Positions 1,445-52,591 of a stretch of DNA of 64,000 nt are shown piece after piece. This DNA is from Escherichia phage ECO340P2. A program made the translations under genes and the position numbers. Under the pieces are notes generated by a model, which saw only the letters and a list, made by a program, of their open reading frames with translations, did not search any database and was not told the origin of the DNA. Position 1 is the stretch's first letter. The number at the start of each line of letters is the position of its first letter. Where the stretch lies: the sequence record OP172792. The stretch is one strand, 5' to 3'.

Positions 1445-1469
1445 TAGGGGATAGCGCATTATTTACATT

Positions 1470-1500
1470 TCTTTACGTTAAAGGGCGCTTAGTGCGCCCT
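1470..1500 (-). terminator. terminator-like hairpin GGGCGCttagtGCGCCC
   Basis: same hairpin family as 911-950 and 6544-6571; weak T-run. Confidence 0.4.
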
Positions 1501-9192: not shown

Positions 9193-9555
9193 TTATTCGT
9201 AAATTTTGCCGCTTTCTACCCATACCGTAACACGGCGCATATTATCCCAAGTGTCTTGATCCAAGTTTAAGCCGTGCAACTCTTCGGTACTTCCCAGACC
9301 AGGTACCGCCTTGTTGTAAGTTGCATATAAGCGCCCTTGATACTCATACGCCAGGGTGAGATCCGTTTGAATCATCTTTTTAAGCATAGCGTTAAGCATC
9401 ATATTAGCGGCATGTTGATCACGTTTTAGCGGTAACATGTCAATAAGGGCGCGATAAGCTGAAATATGAATATCAACCGTTTCACGTGGTAAATTTTTCA
9501 TATCATCGCGGAAAGATACCAGATTAAACATGATAGTATTGATTTGCTTGCTCAT
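9193..9555 (-). CDS. hypothetical early protein
   Basis: ORF with AAAAAGGG RBS. Confidence 0.55.
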   Translation of the reverse strand: MSKQINTIMFNLVSFRDDMKNLPRETVDIHISAYRALIDMLPLKRDQHAANMMLNAMLKKMIQTDLTLAYEYQGRLYATYNKAVPGLGSTEELHGLNLDQDTWDNMRRVTVWVESGKIYE

Positions 9556-9566
9556 TGTGTTACCCT

Positions 9567-9627
9567 TTTTTGTTTTGGCGGGGAAGTATTCCGCCGCCCT
9601 ATGTGATACATCTTATCAGATTAAAAA
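9567..9627 (-). promoter_or_regulatory. early promoter (TTGACA-N16-TAAGAT) + leader hairpin
   Basis: read on minus strand. Confidence 0.6.
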
Positions 9628-9658
9628 ACGTTGTCAAGAATATTTTTAAAAATAATTT

Positions 9659-10978: not shown

Positions 10979-11034
10979 ACTATTCCCGCCTTATGCAACA
11001 TATTAGTAAATTATTCGCTAATGTCAAGCCTTAA
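10979..11034 (-). promoter_or_regulatory. early promoter + leader hairpin GCGGGAActaTTCCCGC
   Basis: TGTCAA 11029-11034. Confidence 0.55.
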
Positions 11035-11303
11035 AGCAAAAATGCTACATCTTGCGCTTTTAGTGTAGTGTCAACCATTTTCGGGCTTTTATAATCAACA
11101 AACCGCGCGGTTTTTTCAATAGCGAAACCTAAATAATCTTGCTTGTTGAAATTACATTCTTTCTTAAATGTTTCCCGCGCCACGGCGATCGCTGCGTCCA
11201 GGGATAAACGACCATCAATATTAATATTAGCGAAAGATCCGCCACCGCTCATAGGTTTACCAGTGGTGCCAGTTACAATCATTGTTGCGCTATATGATGC
11301 CAT
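11031..11303 (-). CDS. hypothetical early protein
   Basis: ORF with AGAAGAGAGAAAAA RBS. Confidence 0.55.
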   Translation of the reverse strand: MASYSATMIVTGTTGKPMSGGGSFANINIDGRLSLDAAIAVARETFKKECNFNKQDYLGFAIEKTARFVDYKSPKMVDTTLKAQDVAFLL

Positions 11304-11326
11304 GATTTTTCTCTCTTCTGTTAGGC

Positions 11327-11382
11327 GGGGCGCTTGTCGCCCCTATGTGATACATCTTATCAGGTTGTTGCCTGTTGTCAAT
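11327..11382 (-). promoter_or_regulatory. early promoter + leader hairpin GGGGCGcttgtCGCCCC
   Basis: TGTCAA 11377-11382. Confidence 0.55.
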
Positions 11383-11387
11383 ACTTT

Positions 11388-11585
11388 TTATTCAAGCCCT
11401 ACGATATGCAAAACACGGCGATCAGCAATAGCGTGCTGGTCTTCTGTTATAACGCACATTTCTACCAGTGAATCAAGAAAGGAAAGCACAGTAATATATT
11501 CGTCATCGGGTACACTCATTTCATTAGTACCGTTTACCATTACGTTGATTTGTCCTGCTTTCGCTACAATGTGCAATGTTGCCAT
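11388..11585 (-). CDS. hypothetical small early protein
   Basis: ORF with GGAG RBS. Confidence 0.5.
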   Translation of the reverse strand: MATLHIVAKAGQINVMVNGTNEMSVPDDEYITVLSFLDSLVEMCVITEDQHAIADRRVLHIVGLE

Positions 11586-11780
11586 GATCTTAACTCCAGG
11601 TGATAAATGATGTTTTTGTTTGTTGACGGTGGATTATGGAGATCCTCACCTTTGCCCGTCCTACATTGCACCCTCCTGTTGTTTATTGTCGTTGTGCCTC
11701 GCCCCCCTCGACAAGATGAATACTACGCTACCCCCTGGCGAACGTCAATCACTTTTCAATCTTTTTCATTTCTTTTTTGC

Positions 11781-11809
11781 TTGCTATCTATAAAGGAAAG
11801 GGCTATTAT
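11781..11809 (+). promoter_or_regulatory. sigma70-like promoter TTGCTA-N17-TATTAT
   Basis: hexamers read directly. Confidence 0.45.
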
Positions 11810-11856
11810 CTTTCTACCGCGCCAACCAGGGCGCACAACAAAGAAAGGGCGACACC

Positions 11857-12120
11857 ATGACTACTACATTACATCTTATGCACTCGTTAGGCTGGCAAGG
11901 CGGCACGGTGCACCAAGTAGCAAGCGCAACGGGCTTAAAGGTTGAAACCGTGCTTACCCTGGGCGATCATAAGGTGGAAGAGATAGACCATTTTGATCCG
12001 TTTGCTGATGGTTATTTGTGGGCGCTCAGTGGCGGCGGGGAAAGCAAGATCCCGCCAGGGGCGCGGGGCGATATGTATTTTTGGTTAGGTGTCCTCTCCT
12101 GGCAAGAAAACAAAAAATAA
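11857..12120 (+). CDS. hypothetical protein in GC-rich island (possible moron)
   Basis: 87-aa ORF with AAAGGG RBS; local GC clearly above flanking DNA. Confidence 0.35.
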   Translation: MTTTLHLMHSLGWQGGTVHQVASATGLKVETVLTLGDHKVEEIDHFDPFADGYLWALSGGGESKIPPGARGDMYFWLGVLSWQENKK

Positions 12121-12122
12121 TC

Positions 12123-12151
12123 TTGACAAGCCCAGGGATCGGGCTTATACT
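12123..12151 (+). promoter_or_regulatory. sigma70-like promoter TTGACA-N17-TATACT
   Basis: near-consensus hexamers; no credible ORF downstream. Confidence 0.55.
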
Positions 12152-12378
12152 GCTTTACATACAGAAGAGGAAGCGCCACCCCACGGCGTAAAGGCGGGGC
12201 TAACATACCAGGGCGCTGGTTGGAAGGTTGATCGCCGGGAGGCTGGACGCTATACATTTGTAAAGAAATGTAAAGACTAAAATAATTGCTTGCTTTCCAG
12301 GGTAGATCTGTTATTCTTATTACATGGCGAGGGGACACGGGAGCGCGAGACAAACACCACTCCTGCGCGTCATTCCCT

Positions 12379-12541
12379 AAATGAGAATGATTATCATTTA
12401 CCTTCTTAAATAAGAATCAATCTCATTTGAGTAGTTGAATGAGAATCATTCCTATTCGCAAAGTGAGAATAAGTCTCATTTACAACATTAAATGCGAATC
12501 AATCTCATTTGCATTTACATATGAGAATTGTTCTCATTCTC
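12379..12541. repeat. six palindromic iteron/operator-like sites (approx. AAATGAGAAT-N3-5-TCTCATTT)
   Basis: sites at about 12379, 12409, 12437, 12460, 12488, 12519; the last (ATGAGAAttgTTCTCAT) is a perfect palindrome. Confidence 0.6.
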
Positions 12542-12560
12542 ACCTGCATAAAAATTTTTG

Positions 12561-12600
12561 TAAACTTTAAATTTTGCTTTTGTACTTTCATTTTTGTAAA
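12561..12600. repeat. AT-rich 40-bp direct repeat, copy 1
   Basis: about 35/40 identity with 12700-12739. Confidence 0.55.
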
Positions 12601-12699
12601 AGCAAAAAAACTTTAAATACTGTGGGCGCGCAAAATTTTTAAAATTTTCCTTGACTTTTAAGTCTTATTCTTGTATGTAACATTTTAAGATAATTTTCC

Positions 12700-12739
12700 T
12701 AAACTTTAAATTTTGGTTTTCAACTTTCACTTTTGTAAA
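12700..12739. repeat. AT-rich 40-bp direct repeat, copy 2
   Basis: about 35/40 identity with 12561-12600. Confidence 0.55.
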
Positions 12740-12888
12740 TTCTTAAAAAGTTTAAATAATTTGAGGAATTTTTGAGATAACAGATAGTGAGAATTTGAGA
12801 TAACCTTTAATCTTGTTGGTAAACCTTCAGGAACCCATCTAGATCAAATCCTAGCGATGCAAACTGAAAAGATAAGTGTTCGTATAGG

Positions 12889-12933
12889 ACAAAATAATAG
12901 GCTCTCTACAGTGCTGTAGGAGCCTTATTTCTG
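12889..12933. terminator. bidirectional intrinsic terminator (AGGCTCtCTACAG-tg-CTGTAGGAGCCT flanked by T-runs)
   Basis: 12-bp stem with T-rich tracts on both strands; downstream of the leftward operon ending at 12990. Confidence 0.6.
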
Positions 12934-12989
12934 TGCTACAAAGTGACACCTTTGTTTTAAAAATGAAAAAAGTTAAAATATCACAAATA

Positions 12990-13523
12990 TCATCTTTGCG
13001 GTATTTTGTCTGGGAAAAGTATTTCTATCAGCTTGTTATGATATTTACCTAAAAGATTCTGCCCTTTCCAGGTGGCAGGGTTTAGCACCCCTGGTTCATA
13101 CATCCCCATTCCAATTCCGTATACCTTATCGTAAGGACTTGCTTCAACAAATGTTTTGTATTGATATAGACGTAAATCGGCATACAAGTCTGGATTCTGT
13201 ACATACTTCAAGCATAAGCCTCGCATTACAATACGCTCACGATTCTCTTCCCATACTTTGTTATCGAAGCCAGCTACTGCCCTACCCATACGTTTGTAAT
13301 AAGCTTGTATCTTCTCATCTTCTCGTTTTAAACTATGAGTCAGAATAGCCTGTGCAGTGCTGTGGTCATTAAAAAGCAAAGCTTTACGCCACATCATATA
13401 TTGTTCTACACAGTTAAATGTTTCATTGTATCCTAGCTCCGTCTCTGTAAATGGTGCAAGATACCAATTACTAAACACATCTTTATGTGAAAAGAAGAAT
13501 ACATATTCATCAGTTATTCTCAT
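12990..13523 (-). CDS. NADAR (YbiA-like, DUF1768) domain protein; putative ADP-ribosyl/N-glycoside hydrolase
   Basis: recalled YbiA-family pattern: FFFS..FSNWY..PF, EQYMMWRKALLF, YYKRMGRAV, C-terminal LGKYHNKL; AGGAGG RBS. Confidence 0.7.
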   Translation of the reverse strand: MRITDEYVFFFSHKDVFSNWYLAPFTETELGYNETFNCVEQYMMWRKALLFNDHSTAQAILTHSLKREDEKIQAYYKRMGRAVAGFDNKVWEENRERIVMRGLCLKYVQNPDLYADLRLYQYKTFVEASPYDKVYGIGMGMYEPGVLNPATWKGQNLLGKYHNKLIEILFPDKIPQR

Positions 13524-13698
13524 TTTTCATACCTCCTAAGACTTCAGCTTGCCCGTCTTGAAAAGCTTTCATCAGAACTATCTTAAGATTGACTTCCAAA
13601 CGTTCTTCATCCTTTCTATAACAATCCAACACTGCCTTAAGTTCATCATAGTGGTTCAGGATAGGTTTAAAGATTTCATGATCTGCTAAACGTGCCAT
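13510..13698 (-). CDS. hypothetical protein
   Basis: ORF in operon. Confidence 0.5.
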   Translation of the reverse strand: MARLADHEIFKPILNHYDELKAVLDCYRKDEERLEVNLKIVLMKAFQDGQAEVLGGMKNENN

Positions 13699-13711
13699 AG
13701 TTCCTCCTTTG

Positions 13712-14077
13712 TTAGTCCATCCACCAGTAGCCGTAAACCGCGTCTGCGTCGATGAGTTTGTGTTTGTTGTTCCGCATGTAGTCTAAGATAAGTAGACGTT
13801 TATTGTATCTGGAGAGATTATGACCCTCTTTTCCGCCATAGTCAAAATATTTTGCAAGATCTTTACATTCAAACAAAATTAGTTCAGGAGTTTCCTCACA
13901 CTGGTCTGTCTGGTACACTTGACGAATGATCATGTATACATCATCGTCTTCCGCTAAATGCTCTACTGGTCCACATCCAGCAGGAACAAATTCATAATCC
14001 CATCGAATCAGATGTGTCTCTACTGCTTCAAAGAAGTCCATTCTTTCGTTGCGCATAATTTGAACGTCAACTAACAT
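13712..14077 (-). CDS. hypothetical protein
   Basis: ORF in operon. Confidence 0.5.
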   Translation of the reverse strand: MLVDVQIMRNERMDFFEAVETHLIRWDYEFVPAGCGPVEHLAEDDDVYMIIRQVYQTDQCEETPELILFECKDLAKYFDYGGKEGHNLSRYNKRLLILDYMRNNKHKLIDADAVYGYWWMD

Positions 14078-15279
14078 GTTTCCTCCTGTAATGTTCCACC
14101 ATAAAGTTTATAAATATTTTGTATTGATGCCATGCAAGATAACTCCACTGTCTCTGTGTAGCCATCTGGCATAGAATATTTGCTCACTGCTTCCGTGTGA
14201 AGGACACGCTTACAACGCTTTTCTGCATCTTTGCATTGCTTCACAGTAGGGAAGTGCCACACTTGGCTCTGTTTCATAGTAAACACATTACGACTATTTT
14301 GTTCTTTGATACGGCGATTACTATTATTAGCAATACCAAACTTCAGTGCACAGATAATATCTTGCTCATCGTAAATATAATTAATGTAGGCTTGTTGTTG
14401 ATTCATACCTGCACAACCAGGGCAACCACACCCCTTATTTAACCAATTGTTAGCACTACACACATGTTTCCCATGATCCTTGCAACCATATTCAAAATCC
14501 CCAAGTATAGAAGCTTTCCCGATCCACCCCAACCACACGTACCCTCTACGTTCTACGTCACTTTTTGCTCTAAATGTCACCTCTTCTTCAGAATATTTGT
14601 AACTGGCAGAACAACGACAAGGGCGCATACCCTGTTTTAATGAACTACCTCTACCGATAAAATATCCCGTTCCTACCCCAGCTTTGGAAAACTCATCTAT
14701 AGCACAGATAGGGCAAAATACACTCCAAAGTATTTCGCTCCTCCCAGCTTTTTCCCCTGTATTAGTGAAGGTAGTGCCTTCGGGAAACACACCCGTACTC
14801 ATGAAATCTTGTATGTGCTGATCGTCTGAAAGCTTATTGTGTTTACCTATACCCTCTAAACGACAAACTGGACAACCTTGTTTATTATTCTTAAAGTTGT
14901 CTATGGTAGATGTGTTAAACTCGTGACCCCTATCACAACGTAAGATTACTCGTGTCTTTTTAGCTTTCAGCCATTCTCCGTAGATACCCAAGAAGCGCCA
15001 ACCTCTTTTTAACGCTTCTTCTTCACACTCTTTCTCTTGGTCCTCTCTGCTCTTCGTTCTCTTCTCCCTTTTTGTTAATTCACCACAAGAAGGGCAAGAC
15101 TTCCCACTTTTAAAGTTAGATATTTTACAAGTATCCCATACACCGTGCACAGGACATTCTATCAGGAGTTTAGTCTCACACCCTTTCCATTCTTTATGGC
15201 CTAAAATTTTATATCCTTTAGAGAGAGCTATGATCTCGCATTCTGCTTTATATTCTTCCCAACTTTTAGCTTTACTCAT
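14071..15279 (-). CDS. Cys-rich protein with three tandem zinc-ribbon-like repeats
   Basis: three repeats of C-x-x-HG-x-[WF]...NF...G-x-x-CP-x-C (CPVHGVW..CPSCG; CDRGHEF..CPVCR; CKDHGKH..CPGC). Confidence 0.55.
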   Translation of the reverse strand: MSKAKSWEEYKAECEIIALSKGYKILGHKEWKGCETKLLIECPVHGVWDTCKISNFKSGKSCPSCGELTKREKRTKSREDQEKECEEEALKRGWRFLGIYGEWLKAKKTRVILRCDRGHEFNTSTIDNFKNNKQGCPVCRLEGIGKHNKLSDDQHIQDFMSTGVFPEGTTFTNTGEKAGRSEILWSVFCPICAIDEFSKAGVGTGYFIGRGSSLKQGMRPCRCSASYKYSEEEVTFRAKSDVERRGYVWLGWIGKASILGDFEYGCKDHGKHVCSANNWLNKGCGCPGCAGMNQQQAYINYIYDEQDIICALKFGIANNSNRRIKEQNSRNVFTMKQSQVWHFPTVKQCKDAEKRCKRVLHTEAVSKYSMPDGYTETVELSCMASIQNIYKLYGGTLQEETC

Positions 15280-46153: not shown

Positions 46154-47932
46154 GTGTCGCACATTATAACTAAATATGGATTTGATGTTGATCTTAGCAA
46201 GGAAGGACATACAGGTTGTCCGCGCTGCATGAAAAATGGCAAGGATCGCTCTCGTAATAACCTGATGGTTTATGGATTAGATTCTAATGGAGAGCATAAA
46301 GGTGCTAAGTGCTTTGCGTGTGAATACACTATTCCTAGCGTAGAATGGTTACGAGAAAATGGTGAAGTTTTAGAAGAAGAGGAGGAGATTGTGGGTTCGG
46401 AATTTAATAAACAGATTCATCGTAAAATTGTTCAAGAAACATCAACCAACCCACGTGGTTATCGAGGCATTAAAGAAAAAGTTTCATCTTTCTATGGTGT
46501 TCGTTATGAATACCGTCAGGAAGGGGATCAGATGGTAGTAGAAAGCTGTTTATATCCAACTACTATCGGTAAAGAATTGGTTGGTTTCAAGCGTCGTATT
46601 CATCCTAAAGACTTCAGTAAGCCTATTGGTCAAGTAGGTAAAGATGTAGATCTTTTTGGACAAATTCGTTTTGCAGACCGTTCTCATACTGTTGTAATTA
46701 CAGGTGGTGAACACGATGCTCTGGCAGCTTATCAAATGCTGTCTGAAAACTTGGATAGTAAATATGAGCTTCCAGCAGTAGTAAGTGGCACAACTGGTGA
46801 AACCAGTATGTATAAACAAGTTCAGGCACAATATCCTTTCTTTGAAAAATTTAAGAAAATTATTGTTTGCATGGATAATGACAAAGCAGGTAATGAAGCA
46901 TTTGAAAATATTGTTAAGGTGCTGCCTCGTAACAAAGTATACCGTATGCAGATGGACCTTAAAGATGCCAATCAGTATCTGGAAGAAGGTCGTGCAAAAG
47001 ATTTCGTAAAAGCTTTTTGGAGTGCTCGTCTGTACACACCAGCAGGTGTTTATGCTTCCAACGTCTTGTATGAAGCTGCATTAGAATGCTTGGAATCCAA
47101 GATGATTACCTTGCCTCCTTTTATGCGTGTTGCTGCAAATATGCTGGGTGGTGGTTTAGTAGAAGAAGAGATTACAGTTATCCTGGCAAAGACTAGTATC
47201 GGTAAAACTTTGATGGTGAATGAGATCACCAAACATATTATCGTTGCGCACCCAGAACATACCCTAGGTATTCTGTCCTTGGAAGCAACTTATAAGAAAT
47301 ATTCTCGTAACCTGTTGTCCTCTTTCCTACACATTCCTCTACACAGGAAAACACCTGAAGAGAAATTTCAAATCTTGGAAGAGAATAAAGAAAAAATCCT
47401 AGATTTTTACGAAAGAGAAGATGGATCACCACGTTTTTATGTGTGTGATGATCGTGGAGCAGATGTGGAGTCTATCAAAGAAAAAGTTTTGGAGATGATC
47501 ATCTATTTTGGAGTAACAATTCTTGTTATCGACCCTTATTCTGATTTGCTTTCTGGTATGGATGTTCAAGCCCAGGAAGAGTTAGCAACATGGTTGAAGC
47601 GTATCATGAAAGAATATGCTATAACTATTATCGTCATCTCACACGTTAAGAAATCAGCTAATGGTGGCAATGAACACTTAACAGAAGACGATGCAATGGG
47701 TAGTAGTTTCTTGGCTAAAGGTGCTGGTATTACATTGGCTTTGGAACGAGATAAAGCTGCTGAAGACCCTGTAGAACGCAATACAACTCATTGCTTTATC
47801 CTAAAAAACCGTGAGTTCTCGGAAACTGGTCCGGCAGGGCAGTTTTACTATGACATTAGAACTGCAACTCTGCACGACAAAGAGCAGTATTTCAACAATC
47901 CTGCTAATTTGCCTACGGATAGCAACTACTAA
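46154..47932 (+). CDS. primase-helicase (Zn-ribbon + Toprim-like + DnaB-like helicase)
   Basis: N-terminal CPRC...CFAC; VVITGGEHDALAAY; Walker A KTSIGKT. Confidence 0.7.
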   Translation: MSHIITKYGFDVDLSKEGHTGCPRCMKNGKDRSRNNLMVYGLDSNGEHKGAKCFACEYTIPSVEWLRENGEVLEEEEEIVGSEFNKQIHRKIVQETSTNPRGYRGIKEKVSSFYGVRYEYRQEGDQMVVESCLYPTTIGKELVGFKRRIHPKDFSKPIGQVGKDVDLFGQIRFADRSHTVVITGGEHDALAAYQMLSENLDSKYELPAVVSGTTGETSMYKQVQAQYPFFEKFKKIIVCMDNDKAGNEAFENIVKVLPRNKVYRMQMDLKDANQYLEEGRAKDFVKAFWSARLYTPAGVYASNVLYEAALECLESKMITLPPFMRVAANMLGGGLVEEEITVILAKTSIGKTLMVNEITKHIIVAHPEHTLGILSLEATYKKYSRNLLSSFLHIPLHRKTPEEKFQILEENKEKILDFYEREDGSPRFYVCDDRGADVESIKEKVLEMIIYFGVTILVIDPYSDLLSGMDVQAQEELATWLKRIMKEYAITIIVISHVKKSANGGNEHLTEDDAMGSSFLAKGAGITLALERDKAAEDPVERNTTHCFILKNREFSETGPAGQFYYDIRTATLHDKEQYFNNPANLPTDSNY

Positions 47933-48464: not shown

Positions 48465-49259
48465 TTGAGCAAGTTGAACACACTTGATCAATATTACACT
48501 AACCCCGCTTATGCGGGGTTCTTATGTGATAAGATCAAAGAAATTTTTGGAGAGGAAGCTAACTACGTAGAACCATCTGCGGGAGAAGGAGCTTTCTCTT
48601 CTTGTTTTAAAAACATAACTTCTTTTGATATTGACCCTAAGTTTGAAGATTGTATTGAGGCAGATTTTTTAGCCCAATCTGTTGAGTCTGTTGGTAGTGT
48701 AACTGCTTTTGTCGGTAATCCTCCATTTGGAAAAAATGCTAGTCTTGCCATTAAATTCTTTAACCATTGTGCTGAAATGCTAGATAACGAAGGTGGTATT
48801 TGTTTTATCTTGCCTCGCACATTTCAAAAAATCTTTTTTGCACACAAACTAAATCCCCACATGCATCTTCTTTACGAAGAAGAATGTCCAAAAGGATCTT
48901 TTATTCTTCATGGAGAACCTTGGGATGTTCCTTGTGTATTCCAGATATGGATTAAACGCAACGAGAAGCGTTCTCCCGTTGTTTTAGGAGAAAATCGACT
49001 ATTTGTATTAGGCAACAGTAAAGACTACGACATAGCCGTTAGGAGAGCGGGAGCAAGTGCAGGTAAAGTGTTATCAGAAGAAGATTCTTTATCTGAAGCG
49101 TCTACCTATTTTTTAAAAGCCTTGACTTCTGATCTTAAAACGCGTATCATTGAGGCTTACCCGTTACTTAAAGCTGAAGCTAGTAAAACTGCGGGAGTAA
49201 GAAGTTTAAGTTTAAAAGAACTTCAGTGGGTTCTGGAGAACATTAGAAAGGAGGAATAG
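48465..49259 (+). CDS. DNA N6-adenine methyltransferase (orphan)
   Basis: QYYTNP, EPSAGEGAF (motif I), VGNPPFGK (motif IV); TTG start; no adjacent endonuclease. Confidence 0.7.
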   Translation: MSKLNTLDQYYTNPAYAGFLCDKIKEIFGEEANYVEPSAGEGAFSSCFKNITSFDIDPKFEDCIEADFLAQSVESVGSVTAFVGNPPFGKNASLAIKFFNHCAEMLDNEGGICFILPRTFQKIFFAHKLNPHMHLLYEEECPKGSFILHGEPWDVPCVFQIWIKRNEKRSPVVLGENRLFVLGNSKDYDIAVRRAGASAGKVLSEEDSLSEASTYFLKALTSDLKTRIIEAYPLLKAEASKTAGVRSLSLKELQWVLENIRKEE

Positions 49260-52200
49260 TGAGTAAGTTTACATGGGATATTGAAGCAAACGGATTGTTG
49301 AATAATGACACTATTGATTATTTGGCTAGTCCTTATCGTCTCAAAGACACATTTCAAATGCACTGTATTGTCTTAGAGAACCATGAAACAGGAGAAATAG
49401 TAGCTTTCCACGATGGCCCTAAATACATTTTTGATGGGCGTCCTTATGAAGAATCAGATGGTAAATACACGTATGTTCTTAAAGAGTATGTGGCGCAAGA
49501 TTACACACATTTTCAACTAAAAGATTTCCCAGACTTTATTAATCATGAAGGTTATTTTCAAGACAAGCCGGAATATCTGGTTGAAATGGCTGTGGCACAT
49601 AACGGTATCAACTACGACTGGTTGGCTACAAAACTGTTTTACGGATTGGATTACAGTGTTAAATATAATACATGGGGTAAAAGCAAGGTAAAACTTATTG
49701 ACTCCTTGATTTTGAGTAAAGTGTTGAACCCAGATCGAAAGATTGAGGGCAAATCAGGACATAGCTTGGCAGCACTTTCTCGAAAGGCAGGTGGTGATGT
49801 AAAAATAGATTTCCGTAAAGAGATTCCAGAAGAAGATCGATTTAAGACTTTTGCTGCGGATATGCTTTATTACTGTATCTATGACAACAAAGCCAATACG
49901 AGCGTATATAATTACCTTATGGAAGAATGGGGTGATTATGATAAATGGGAAGGTCCGTTTGAACTTGAACAACGTGTAGCAGACATTATTACACGCCAGG
50001 AACACCGTGGGTTTGCTTTTAACATGAAGCAAGCAGAAGAGAACCTTGCTTTTTTGGATGCCGAAATGGAGCGTCTTCGTTTACTCGTTGAGCCTATTTT
50101 GCCACCTAAGCCAGCAACAAAAGGTTATCTTAAGGCTTTTATCCCACCTAAGTTGCAAATTAAAAAGAACTTAGAACCAACTAACCATATGATCAATTTT
50201 GCTAAGAAACATGATGGTCATTTGGAAGAGAGAGATGGGGACTGGTGGTTAGTTATGTTGGGGAAAGAGTGGAAACTGCCAGTTGCAGCAGACGAACCTT
50301 TATGTGATCCTCATATCCCTGCAACATTGAATGATACAACCCATATTAAAAACTGGCTTGTAGGTTTAGGTTGGGTACCATCAGAATATAAAGATAAAGA
50401 CTTGACTCTTAAATCTGGCACCAAGATTAAAAAGAGTGAGGAAGAACTTCAGAAAGGTATTCGAGCTTACGTTGAGCAAACTCTATCTTCTAATTTTTGT
50501 CAGGATCGTTGTGATCACCTTGAGTGCACACCGGAAACCTTAGAAAGGAAAATTCAAGAGCGTATAGCAAAAGGTAAAGGTCGCGGTCTTAAAGTGTTGA
50601 CTAACCCATGTTTTACCAAAGGTCAGGAAAAAGAAATTTGTCCTAACCTGCAAGCTTTGGGTGAGAAATTTCCTTATGCTACACAGATTGTAGAATACTT
50701 AACGTATAAACATCGTAGGAACTCTATTTTAGGTGGTGGTGCTGATTGGGAAGAAGACGAAGAAGATCAAGAATACGATAAAGGTTTCTTAGCCGCAGTA
50801 AGGGCGGATGGTCGTATTCCTACCCCAGCCGCTACATGTGATGCTGCAACCTCTCGTATGAAGCATAGGTCTGTCGCTAATATTCCTCGTGTTACATCTT
50901 TGTTTGGATGGGAGATGCGTAACCTGTTTGGTGTGGAGGTTCCTAAATACTTCCAGATCGGCTACGACTTCGACTCTTTGGAAGCAAAAATTGAATCACA
51001 CTACTGTGTGCCGATGGATGCTCAAGCTTTGACTCGTAAAGGTTGGGTAGGATATCACGACCTGAAGGAAGGGGATGAGATTTTAGGGTACAATGCTGAA
51101 ACAGGTCTGAAAGAATGGACTAAAGTAAAAGGTAAGGTCTTCTATAAAAATAGTAAGACGTTTGAGATTAAAGGGAAATCACACACTTACCGTGCAACAG
51201 CAGATCACCGTTGGTATGTTAATACCCGTAGTAAAGGGAATACTTATGTGCCTAAAGTCAGAACAACTGCCGAGCTTTGCACAGGAGATAACATTATTTG
51301 TAATGCTCCATTTAATATGGAACAAGATCAGGTAAATAGTTTAACTTCTGTTCAACAAGGTAAATGGGATGTTCCGTGGGTAGAACGTGTAGTTAATATG
51401 TCTCATGCCGAGCGTGTAGCTTTCTTGGAAGGTTTCTTGATTGCAGATGGTTACTGGCACGAACATAAACAAAAACCTGTTTGGCGTTGGGCGCAGAACC
51501 CAGGTGAACTTTTTGAAGCAGCTTTAACTGCCTCGTACCTGGTGCATGGAGGCAATATCTCTGTAGCTTTCAATACAAAAGAGCAGAAAGTAAAAGTGGC
51601 AACATTGACTAACCGCTCTCACATTCCTGTTCAAAGTTTGACTATTGAAGAGTGGGGTGTAGAGGATGTTTGGTGTCCACAAACAGAACTTGGTACGTGG
51701 GTCATGCGTCAGAAAGACTGCATTACCATCACAGGAAACTGTTGGCGGTACGAGCCGGAGCCACACGAGTATTGTAACGCTCTGTTGTTAGAGAAACCTA
51801 ATGATGTTCACACAATGATGGCAAAACGTATCACTGAAACTATCGGACGTAAATTTGAACGTAGTCCTGCTAAATCTGTTAAGTATGGTATTACCTATGG
51901 TGCACAAGCCGACAAGGTTGCTAAAACAATTGGTAGCGATAAGTTTACAGGTCAATTAGTGTTTGATGCTTTCTGGGAAGCTGCATTCCCATTGGCGCGT
52001 CTTAAAGAACGTTTAAACGATTTCTGGGTTAAGACTGGTAAACAATATGTTTTGGGTATTGACGGTCGTAAGGTTCCTACTCGTTCTGCTCACGCGATTC
52101 TTAACTCTCTGTTCCAAAGTGGTGGGGTTATCTGTGCTAAACGTGCAATGGTTATTTATGACGACATGATCGAAGAAGAAGGACTAAGTGTTGACTTCTT

Positions 52201-52591
52201 TAAAGATGACTGGAAGAATAAAGACTTCGTGCAACAAATGATTGCATATCACGATGAAGCCCAGCTTGAAGTTTCTCGTAACCTTGTAGAATTTAAATGG
52301 TTTTCACCTGAATCATTAGGTTGGAAGAAAGTAGACGATCCTGAAGAACAAAAGAAAATTGATAAAGAATGCCTTGCTAAAGTTGAAGAATGGAAGCATA
52401 ATAAGGAAAAAGAGACGGGACAAATTTGGGCTAACATTCATGAATCTCCCAAAGGTGGATGGTTTACAGCCTATAGTCGGGCAGGTGAACTTGCTGCCTT
52501 AGCTGTTACTAAGGCTGGAGAATTTTACAATCTTAATGTTCAGCTTACTGCCGGATATGATGTGGGTAATTCTTGGGCGTCCTGTCACTGA
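49259..52591 (+). CDS. family A DNA polymerase with 3'-5' exonuclease domain, interrupted by putative intein
   Basis: Exo I FTWDIEANGL; motif A-like GYDFDSLEAKI; motif B-like RSPAKSVKYGITYGAQ; 245-aa insertion between them; GTG start. Confidence 0.75.
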   Translation: MSKFTWDIEANGLLNNDTIDYLASPYRLKDTFQMHCIVLENHETGEIVAFHDGPKYIFDGRPYEESDGKYTYVLKEYVAQDYTHFQLKDFPDFINHEGYFQDKPEYLVEMAVAHNGINYDWLATKLFYGLDYSVKYNTWGKSKVKLIDSLILSKVLNPDRKIEGKSGHSLAALSRKAGGDVKIDFRKEIPEEDRFKTFAADMLYYCIYDNKANTSVYNYLMEEWGDYDKWEGPFELEQRVADIITRQEHRGFAFNMKQAEENLAFLDAEMERLRLLVEPILPPKPATKGYLKAFIPPKLQIKKNLEPTNHMINFAKKHDGHLEERDGDWWLVMLGKEWKLPVAADEPLCDPHIPATLNDTTHIKNWLVGLGWVPSEYKDKDLTLKSGTKIKKSEEELQKGIRAYVEQTLSSNFCQDRCDHLECTPETLERKIQERIAKGKGRGLKVLTNPCFTKGQEKEICPNLQALGEKFPYATQIVEYLTYKHRRNSILGGGADWEEDEEDQEYDKGFLAAVRADGRIPTPAATCDAATSRMKHRSVANIPRVTSLFGWEMRNLFGVEVPKYFQIGYDFDSLEAKIESHYCVPMDAQALTRKGWVGYHDLKEGDEILGYNAETGLKEWTKVKGKVFYKNSKTFEIKGKSHTYRATADHRWYVNTRSKGNTYVPKVRTTAELCTGDNIICNAPFNMEQDQVNSLTSVQQGKWDVPWVERVVNMSHAERVAFLEGFLIADGYWHEHKQKPVWRWAQNPGELFEAALTASYLVHGGNISVAFNTKEQKVKVATLTNRSHIPVQSLTIEEWGVEDVWCPQTELGTWVMRQKDCITITGNCWRYEPEPHEYCNALLLEKPNDVHTMMAKRITETIGRKFERSPAKSVKYGITYGAQADKVAKTIGSDKFTGQLVFDAFWEAAFPLARLKERLNDFWVKTGKQYVLGIDGRKVPTRSAHAILNSLFQSGGVICAKRAMVIYDDMIEEEGLSVDFFKDDWKNKDFVQQMIAYHDEAQLEVSRNLVEFKWFSPESLGWKKVDDPEEQKKIDKECLAKVEEWKHNKEKETGQIWANIHESPKGGWFTAYSRAGELAALAVTKAGEFYNLNVQLTAGYDVGNSWASCH
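51005..51739 (+). mobile_element. putative intein (245 aa) with LAGLIDADG-like motif inside the polymerase
   Basis: begins with Cys after motif A, TADH block, LEGFLIADGYW, ends ..ITGN followed by Cys; removal restores normal A-to-B spacing. Confidence 0.5.

Follow-up and report, generated by a model that had tools for sequence, protein, structure and literature searches.

The window analyzed here is a stretch of 64,000 nucleotides from Escherichia phage ECO340P2 (sequence record OP172792), and the element in question is a pair of AT-rich direct repeats at about 12.6 kb that forms part of a conserved non-coding module. The locus belongs to a long arm of small early genes transcribed leftward, with genes for a NADAR protein, a CapR-domain endonuclease-like protein and an AAA ATPase as its neighbors, and the module itself reads rightward from a small gene and two promoters with their leaders, through an array of palindromes and the repeats, to a terminator (Table 1). 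No credible open reading frame (ORF) is present in the repeat region, which is touched by a single ORF of at least 40 aa. A megablast search with positions 11000–14500 returned 146 phage records, the best of which are phAPEC8-like myoviruses (Phapecoctavirus, Stephanstirmvirinae) at 90–93% identity, and by sequence comparison the window is DNA of a phAPEC8-like phage (Phapecoctavirus). The AT-rich repeats are unannotated in the database records inspected, where the palindromes alone carry a bare “repeat_region” label in two records, and no paper describing this locus or module was found in the literature searched.

Table 1. Features of the module in window coordinates.
Feature	Position	Strand	Details
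Small gene, 87 aa, opens the rightward unit	11857..12120	+	kept beside the module in Stephanstirmvirinae; N-terminal part also in Certrevirus CB7
Promoter P1, TTGACA-17-TATACT	12123..12151	+	11/12 match to sigma-70 consensus
GC-rich leader RNA after P1, ~130 nt, with GCGCCACCCCACGGCG...GGCGGGGCUAAC	12152..12285	+	conserved
GTAAAGAAATGTAAA box, GTAAA-N5-GTAAA	12260..12274	+	directly upstream of P2; conserved in leader alignment
Promoter P2, weak -35 TTGCTT, 16-bp spacer, -10 TATTCT	12290..12317	+	read from sequence
P2 leader, G clusters and box GAGACAAACACC (12347-12358)	12322..12376	+	box in 9 phages of two subfamilies
Six palindromes AAATGAGAATnATTCTCATTT	12379..12539	.	cores 12380, 12409, 12438, 12462, 12491, 12520
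Repeat copy 1 (unit 1)	12553..12624	+	5' box AAACTTTAAATTTTGCTTTT, 3' box AAAAACTTTAAATAC
Spacer, read as decayed middle unit	12625..12691	+	GGGCGCGC island, AAAATTTTTAAAATTTT, partial 5' box 12643-12661
Repeat copy 2 (unit 3)	12692..12763	+	5' box AAACTTTAAATTTTGGTTTT, 3' box AAAAAGTTTAAATAA
Two TTTGAGATAA boxes	12771..12803	+	variant TTTAAGATAA at 12684 (12684-12693); flank the last unit
Bidirectional intrinsic terminator	12899..12933	.	annotated as terminator in phAPEC8

The repeat pair and its conservation

A preliminary description of this DNA had reported two AT-rich copies of about 40 nt lying 139 bp apart, and both their sequence and their positions were confirmed. The 40-nt cores at 12561–12600 and 12700–12739 are identical at 36 of 40 positions; the pair is real, and one of the 4 differing positions had been misplaced in the degenerate consensus first given for it. 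The repeat also exceeds the original 40 nt, as a repeat search extends each copy to 72 nt with 82% identity and a start-to-start distance of 139, in a region with a GC content of 0.24–0.26. The 3' end of each unit reads AAAAA(C/G)TTTAAATA(A/C), and part of the spacer (12643–12661) has 84% identity to the beginning of copy 2 (12692–12710) in the same search. The pair is unique and far from chance expectation: a 21-nt core with up to 3 mismatches matches these two places only in 64 kb (0.05 matches expected), and the 11-mer AAASTTTAAAT, which occurs twice per copy with the two occurrences 46 bp apart, is found 4 times in the window against 0.55 expected, in each case within the pair. The same 11-mer has 5 matches in the 150-kb genome of the related phage Mt1B1_P17, 4 of them at this locus, and both exact copies of TTTGAGATAA in that genome are located here as well.

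Conservation was assessed by aligning the non-coding region of the window with those of ten relatives, with diversity (pi) calculated from ten Phapecoctavirus sequences and phiWec179 serving as the distant comparison. Checking related phages for the pair had been proposed in the preliminary description, and the outcome is positive: the pair is kept, and no other non-coding DNA of the locus is as conserved as its two copies. Copy 1 has a pi of 0.003 (1 of 72 columns variable) and copy 2 a pi of 0.000, followed by the terminator (0.008), the spacer (0.018), the right flank (0.07) and the palindromes (0.06–0.14). The same ranking is seen at the greater distance of phiWec179, where divergence rises from 0.18–0.19 for the copies to 0.39 for the spacer and 0.46 for the flank, and where TTTAAATTTTG is changed to TTTAGAATTTG in both copies. 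A search with copy 2 found at least 99% identity in 73 phage records, with 72/72 identity in 28 of the listed rows and two places per record in the listed Phapecoctavirus-like records. The flanks, by comparison, vary by 6–14%. Judging from these alignments, the copies are under strong purifying selection, beyond that acting on the neighboring non-coding DNA.

Several matches outside the phage group were also recorded. A scan of IMG/VR with a degenerate 20-mer gave 38 single matches, none of them two-copy, which we judged to be chance matches in AT-rich DNA without inspection of the loci. The 23 nt at positions 12740–12762, TTAAAAAGTTTAAATAATTTGAG, recur without mismatch in Staphylococcus podophages such as 66, GRCS and Pabna (E 0.01), within ~450 bp of the genome ends of those phages; this is probably chance in AT-rich DNA too. 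The 9-mer TTGAGATAA of the TTTGAGATAA boxes is also present within “direct repeat A” of phage T5, near the end of the terminal repeat (T5 sequence L004 2056–2094). A mini-CRISPR or solitary-repeat reading, which the 65–75-bp period of the locus might suggest, was rejected: the repeated parts are just 70–80% alike. To our knowledge, they resemble no E. coli CRISPR repeat.

Unit geometry across phage genera

The same type of unit occurs in Citrobacter phage Tr1, in phi92, in Klebsiella phages phi1_175008 and 05F01 and in one metagenomic contig. We aligned 15 units from 6 genomes and compared the metagenomic contig separately. An A-tract precedes the core in 15/15 units and the core itself is TTTAAATAA in 13 of them, the unit-1 copies of the window and phiWec179 having TTTAAATAC instead, and a looser T-rich 5' box and a variable middle are common to all; what is conserved is thus a box A5-s-TTTAAATAA together with the geometry of the unit. 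Three units are spaced 75/68 bp in phi92, 76/67 bp in Tr1 and 75/67 bp in phi1_175008. The outer 3' boxes of Phapecoctavirus are 139 bp apart, as compared with ~142 bp (75+67) in these three-unit relatives, and since a partial 5' box is also left in the 67-bp spacer, the window pair is, as far as sequence can tell, units 1 and 3 of an ancestral triplet whose middle unit has decayed.

The geometry extends to phages whose units have another sequence altogether. In the E. coli Vequintavirus EmilHeitz there are three units of 62 nt spaced 74/65 bp (..AAAAACAGATCGAGTAC) and in Serratia phage Kashira three units spaced 65/67 bp, both sets being unrelated in sequence to the units of the window and terminating in AAAAAC(A/C)GATCGAG, and Pectobacterium phage CB7 has GATCGAGACCC repeats. 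There are 2–3 units per genome, all direct and in one orientation, with a motif that is specific to the lineage, and in all these phages they make up the distal part of one conserved rightward unit. It therefore appears from the comparison that unit number, length and spacing have outlived a complete replacement of the sequence. The fact that unit motifs differ among phages of one host points to a phage-encoded reader, and the fixed spacing points to a DNA-protein assembly. This suggests that the units are recognized by a phage-encoded factor, which probably reads them as DNA.

A related possibility is that a phage early protein, or a nucleoid protein of the H-NS type, binds the units as operators or silencers within a region that controls transcription; the units would then insulate or shut off the two neighboring early-gene blocks and play no part in replication. 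H-NS typically binds AT-rich DNA with TpA steps, the units are positioned between two co-directional early blocks at a bidirectional terminator, and their conserved geometry would fit cooperative binding. A host nucleoid protein would not, however, explain why unit sequences differ among phages of the same host, and no regulated promoter is evident inside or directly downstream of the units, so we consider this role quite unlikely. What does seem probable, whichever process they serve, is that the repeats are functional, sequence-specific and orientation-fixed cis elements of a conserved non-coding module.

Palindromes, promoters and predicted transcripts

The sites beside the pair had been described as iterons. 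Six sites of 19–21 bp do exist at 12380–12538, but they are palindromes and not direct iterons, and the roles first assigned to the two kinds of site look reversed: the palindromes would be operator-like sites, and the AT-rich units would be more fitting as iterons. The palindrome motif has 13 strand matches against 0.66 expected. Palindromes number 2–6 across the module-bearing phages and six in the window, where 52 extra bases at 12421–12473, amounting to two extra palindromes, are present relative to nine aligned Phapecoctavirus sequences with four (the gap is also seen in phiWec179); they seem to be the product of a recent local duplication. The palindrome core TGAGAATnATTATCA is very close to the 7-1-7 box of Fur, and the palindromes match the Fur 19-mer consensus at 12–16 of 19 positions, with 16/19 for the site at 12383. 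Since 57 positions in the AT-rich 64 kb match at 13/19 or better, such likeness is not rare, and we treat it as a lead that falls short of proof of Fur binding. The AT-rich repeats are not Fur-like (best match 12/19). One T5 copy of the palindrome has 15 consecutive bases in common (read by eye) with the operator of iucA (aerobactin), whose sequence was confirmed on E. coli plasmids, 21 bp upstream of that gene. A literature search combining “Fur box” and “bacteriophage T5” gave no relevant paper.

The link to T5 is also apparent from a distant blastn search, in which the palindrome array aligns with T5 9471–9634 (direct repeat C and palindromes E–I of the left terminal repeat) and with many T5-like phages at 68–72% identity over ~165 nt. 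Members of this palindrome family recur in the T5 terminal repeat, in many T5-like and rV5-like phages and near the physical end of Phapecoctavirus genomes, with further copies at 105–135 and 686–707 of the window, at 57–75, 236–255 and 975–993 of Mt1B1_P17 and at 1498–1667 of T5 (L004); those in the first 300 bp of Mt1B1_P17 are inside or beside the terminal repeat. A terminal repeat of 328 bp has been reported for Schickermooser (PMC6563267). Window position 1 corresponds to Mt1B1_P17 303 and to Schickermooser 150891 (303 nt from the Schickermooser right end), i.e., it is 303 nt inside the genome end used by two independent records and near the inner edge of the 328-bp terminal repeat. Because of this proximity the source record probably starts at or near the repeat boundary, and the placement of position 1, taken with the reported terminal repeat, puts the module ~12.6–13.2 kb from the physical genome end (8.5%).

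The T5 region in question, “Repeat Region 3,” has been proposed, without proof, to be an injection stop signal, and DnaA boxes in it are discussed in the same work (Davison, bioRxiv 10.1101/866236). The module may be a counterpart of Repeat Region 3, a presumed stop signal or entry boundary element between the first-entering block of small early genes and the remaining genome, in which the palindromes, together with the phage-specific repeats, would halt or pause the DNA or would show a protein of the phage or the host where the boundary lies. Besides the palindromes and the TTGAGATAA repeats of T5, the layouts agree (terminus, leftward small genes, short rightward unit, palindromes plus repeats, leftward genes), the relative position of the module is close to the 7.9–8.3% of T5, and more Fur-like palindromes are found in the first 300 bp of Mt1B1_P17. 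On the other hand, the function of the T5 region is itself unproven, no homologue of A1, A2 or dmp was found in the 64-kb window (tblastn, E ≤ 1; the other 86 kb of the genome was unsearched), DnaA boxes, a feature stressed for T5, are lacking in the module, the terminal repeat is 328 bp and not 10 kb, and the related PhiTE is reported to be circularly permuted and would have no fixed end. The AT-rich units also have no counterpart in T5, whose TGTGCAAATCCGACA repeats have another spacing. Such a function is, in our view, distinctly unlikely.

A packaging (pac/cos-like) site for the small terminase is highly improbable. Three spaced direct sites beside host-factor sites resemble lambda cosB, and the PhiTE genome is of the pac type, but the physical ends with the 328-bp direct repeat are ~12.6 kb away in the two independent Phapecoctavirus records.

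The promoters that lead into the palindromes are themselves conserved. P1 is at the matching place in phi92, the Klebsiella phages, Tr1, CB7, Kashira and L065. Folding of the leader that follows it with RNAalifold, using 8 phages of two subfamilies, gives −20.3 kcal/mol and 25 pairs, 2 of them with compensatory changes, and by this prediction the P1 leader RNA is probably structured; no Rfam family matches the leader at E ≤ 1. The box upstream of P2 is a 15-mer, GTAAAGAAATGTAAA, with two exact copies in 64 kb against 0.33 expected, and the second copy (1462–1476, minus strand) is also immediately upstream of a sigma-70-type TTGACA promoter. With its GTAAA-N5-GTAAA pattern it resembles a CpxR box and is a candidate for one. 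The −35- and −10-like hexamers of P2 are kept in 10/10 aligned upstream regions; P2 itself scores under the threshold of the promoter scan of the window. The conserved box of the P2 leader is GAGACAAnCACC, in a consensus RNA structure that is weak (−3.9 kcal/mol). The terminator hairpin has −15.4 kcal/mol followed by UUAUUUCU on the plus strand and −17.1 kcal/mol followed by UAUUAUUUUG on the minus strand, and it would close both the rightward P1/P2 unit and the leftward block of the NADAR gene. With this arrangement the transcript predicted from P1 is ~775 nt long and that from P2 ~610 nt.

A role of the repeats as RNA must be weighed at this point. P1 and P2 would then give a 600–780-nt non-coding transcript ending at 12899–12933, the U- and A-rich units being protein-binding modules (e.g., a sponge for Hfq, RNase E or a phage protein) and the Fur-like palindromes and the GTAAA-N5-GTAAA box gating its expression. 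A U-run and an (ARN)n-like A-run can be read in the sequence of every unit, and the units always stand in sense orientation between conserved promoters and a terminator, downstream of a P1 leader that looks like a conserved structured RNA; the regulator-like sites would suit a conditionally expressed product, and the region has no credible ORF, the conserved TTTAAATAA giving a stop codon in two frames. However, the units carry no structure signal on either strand (15 unit z-scores from −2.3 to +1.9 with no consistent trend, and dinucleotide-shuffle z-scores of −0.5 and +0.4 for the two window copies) and no Rfam match. A conserved spacing of unrelated sequences, with an A-tract beside a lineage-specific core, fits DNA recognition better, and no paper combining Phapecoctavirus and RNA-seq was found in the literature searched. 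We regard the RNA role as unlikely.

Two classes of known RNA were considered for the units and rejected: nothing credible was found in Rfam as a known family, and a pseudo-ToxI element (the type III antitoxin mimic of PhiTE) would require tandem ~36-nt toxI-like repeats, where the units here are 62–72 nt and not tandem; the escape locus of PhiTE is also elsewhere, the module corresponding to the phiTE_078/079 neighborhood.

The notion that the repeats are promoters, either of sigma-70 type or of a phage-specific class, is by now largely refuted. Both copies contain a weak minus-strand TTTACA-18-CAAAAT (9/12), but these hexamers are not kept in phi92, Tr1 and the Klebsiella phages, there is no gene downstream on either strand, and the motifs do not recur as those of a promoter class would: 4/5 genome-wide matches of AAASTTTAAAT are confined to the locus, and TTTAAATAA is not enriched (5 matches against 7.6 expected in Mt1B1_P17).

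Some further observations concern the transcribed part of the module and its relatives. The P1 leader (12152–12285) has a possible pseudoknot (CGCC/GGCG and CCCC/GGGG). A minus-strand ORF of 113 aa at 12012–12353 (annotated in phAPEC8 as gene 00257) shares its DNA with P1, P2, the leader RNA and the 87-aa gene of the plus strand. In Schickermooser a frameshift breaks this ORF in two, and it is probably not a gene. The “PHIRE promoters” of phAPEC8 (20 nt; sequence L001 217–236, 1071–1090, 2087–2106, 2976–2995 and 3615–3634) are GC-rich hairpins GGGCGGCAATGGTGCCGCTC that follow TAnnAT-like −10 elements, two of them overlapping host-type promoters that are annotated there; the window homologues are left of 11650. 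By their sequence the hairpins look more like stem-loops in the 5' leaders of early transcripts than like promoters.

A candidate origin and its relation to known systems

The repeats had also been proposed to be a DNA unwinding element, to be checked by helical stability. By nearest-neighbor calculation the repeat zone is indeed the least stable DNA of the window, with the 300-bp minimum of the whole 64 kb at 12513–12812 and the 100- and 200-bp minima here as well (z 3.6–3.7); on the 50-bp scale several AT-rich spots are about equal to it. An unwinding element needs AT-richness alone, and a plain one does not fit, since nearly every position is fixed among close relatives (71–72 of 72 columns per copy), homologous units in other lineages do not look AT-rich, and a specific box and geometry are conserved. 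The alternative in the same proposal, that of binding sites, appears to be its better half: the sequence comparison points to A5-s-TTTAAATAA and the unit geometry as what is kept. It is fairly secure that the repeats are more than AT-rich filler or a generic unwinding element.

The reading that we favor, at a probability of roughly 0.35, is that the repeats are iteron-like sites and the unwinding zone of a transcription-activated replication origin. The window encodes a Toprim_2 plus DnaB_C protein (T7 gp4-like) at 46154–47932 and a DNA_pol_A protein at 49259–52591, and because of this fused primase-helicase and family A polymerase the replisome is, by domain content, of the T7 type. The authors of the rV5 study could not place an origin, and none is known for the phage group. 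With promoters pointing into binding-type repeats in the most meltable DNA of a phage that has a T7-type replisome, this reading accounts for more of the features than the others considered. Host RNA polymerase would start at P1 and P2 and read through the palindromes, which may gate it, before entering the low-stability repeat zone, where it would open or prime the DNA for the T7-type replisome. A sequence-specific protein encoded by the phage would bind the units, each with a T-rich 5' box followed by an A-tract and TTTAAATAA, and the units with the surrounding AT-rich DNA would form the initiator-binding and unwinding part of the origin. In its favor are the uniqueness, constraint and geometry of the repeat, the low stability, the conserved tandem promoters, the downstream terminator, the replisome genes, and the change of TTTAAATTTTG to TTTAGAATTTG in both copies of phiWec179.

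A considerable number of points weigh against an origin. No initiator-like domain was found among 9 neighboring ORFs, and the 87-aa protein, for which a confident five-helix model was obtained (predicted local distance difference test, pLDDT, of 95), has no family, solved relative, fold match or recognizable DNA-binding fold that we could find. Within the module there is no DnaA box (no TTWTNCACA, and no TTATCCACA within 1 mismatch), no IHF consensus site WATCAANNNNTTR and no helical phasing of A-tracts. The cumulative GC skew has no turn at the module; each of its turns is at a switch of gene orientation, with the global minimum at 20.2 kb, and since the skew follows gene orientation it is uninformative on the origin. 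The 65–75-bp spacing is unusual for iterons. The units of EmilHeitz, CB7 and Kashira do not look AT-rich by eye, so that unwinding is not the property that has been conserved. The T5 region that shares the palindrome array is not regarded as an origin (bioRxiv 10.1101/866236). A transposon study of a Vequintavirus found an insertion-free 2-kb non-coding region between oppositely transcribed genes; as this setting does not match the present locus, the region is probably a different one.

The 87-aa protein was also considered as the factor that binds the units and was rejected, since in addition to the lack of a family or fold match it is undetected and unannotated in EmilHeitz, which has units.

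Phages of the phAPEC8/phi92/rV5 group see wide use in phage therapy and in model collections, and they have no known origin or other control site acting in cis. Within the first 64 kb no other non-coding stretch is as strong a candidate as the module, which is unique, more constrained than the non-coding DNA beside it and possessed of a geometry that has outlasted sequence turnover. We describe it as a repeat-containing cis-acting control or origin region whose conserved units are new to the literature searched, and it offers a short target in the three TTTAAATAA cores. The palindrome array links these phages to the unexplained T5 repeat region, and its Fur-like sequence suggests a host factor that goes unmentioned in the T5 papers searched.

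Among known systems, E. coli Fur operators such as that of iucA are comparable to the neighboring palindromes only, by virtue of the 7-1-7 core TGAGAATnATTATCA; the palindromes differ in that they occur as arrays of 2–6 in non-coding DNA of phages and follow a promoter instead of overlapping it. Repeat Region 3 of T5 has the same palindrome family AAATGAGAATCATTATCATTT, the TTGAGATAA repeats, a similar position near the end and a similar layout of flanking genes, whereas it has DnaA boxes and TGTGCAAATCCGACA repeats in place of the AT-rich units and is part of a 10-kb terminal repeat that works with A1 and A2, which were not found in the window. A broader and, we think, improbable proposal is that the module belongs to a class partly common to T5-like, rV5-like and phAPEC8/phi92-like phages, placed at the boundary of the first block of small early genes and combining sites for host metal or stress regulators (Fur-like, CpxR-like) with three phage-specific protein-binding units. 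If this were true, staged or host-factor-gated genome entry or activation in the style of T5 would exist well outside the T5 family, and the long-unexplained injection-stop region of T5 would become open to comparative dissection.

The nearest likeness is to two types of replication origin. Like lambda ori and the origins of iteron plasmids, the locus has repeated binding-type sites adjoining the least stable DNA, and the repeat is specific to the lineage, as expected for co-evolution with a cognate initiator; unlike them, its units are 62–72 bp and spaced 65–76 bp, as opposed to tandem sites of ~20 bp, no initiator gene was found nearby and no DnaA or IHF sites in the module, and the locus is outside an initiator gene. 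The primary origin of T7 (phi1.1A and 1.1B with an AT-rich region) is similar in that two tandem promoters point into an easily melted AT-rich stretch and in the replisome, a fused primase-helicase with a family A polymerase; it differs in that the promoters here are those of host sigma-70 and in that T7 has neither Fur-box-like palindromes nor long sequence-specific units. By analogy, then, the locus would stand closest to the T7 primary origin or to a lambda-type origin of iterons plus AT-rich DNA, as a partial match to each rather than a full member of either class.

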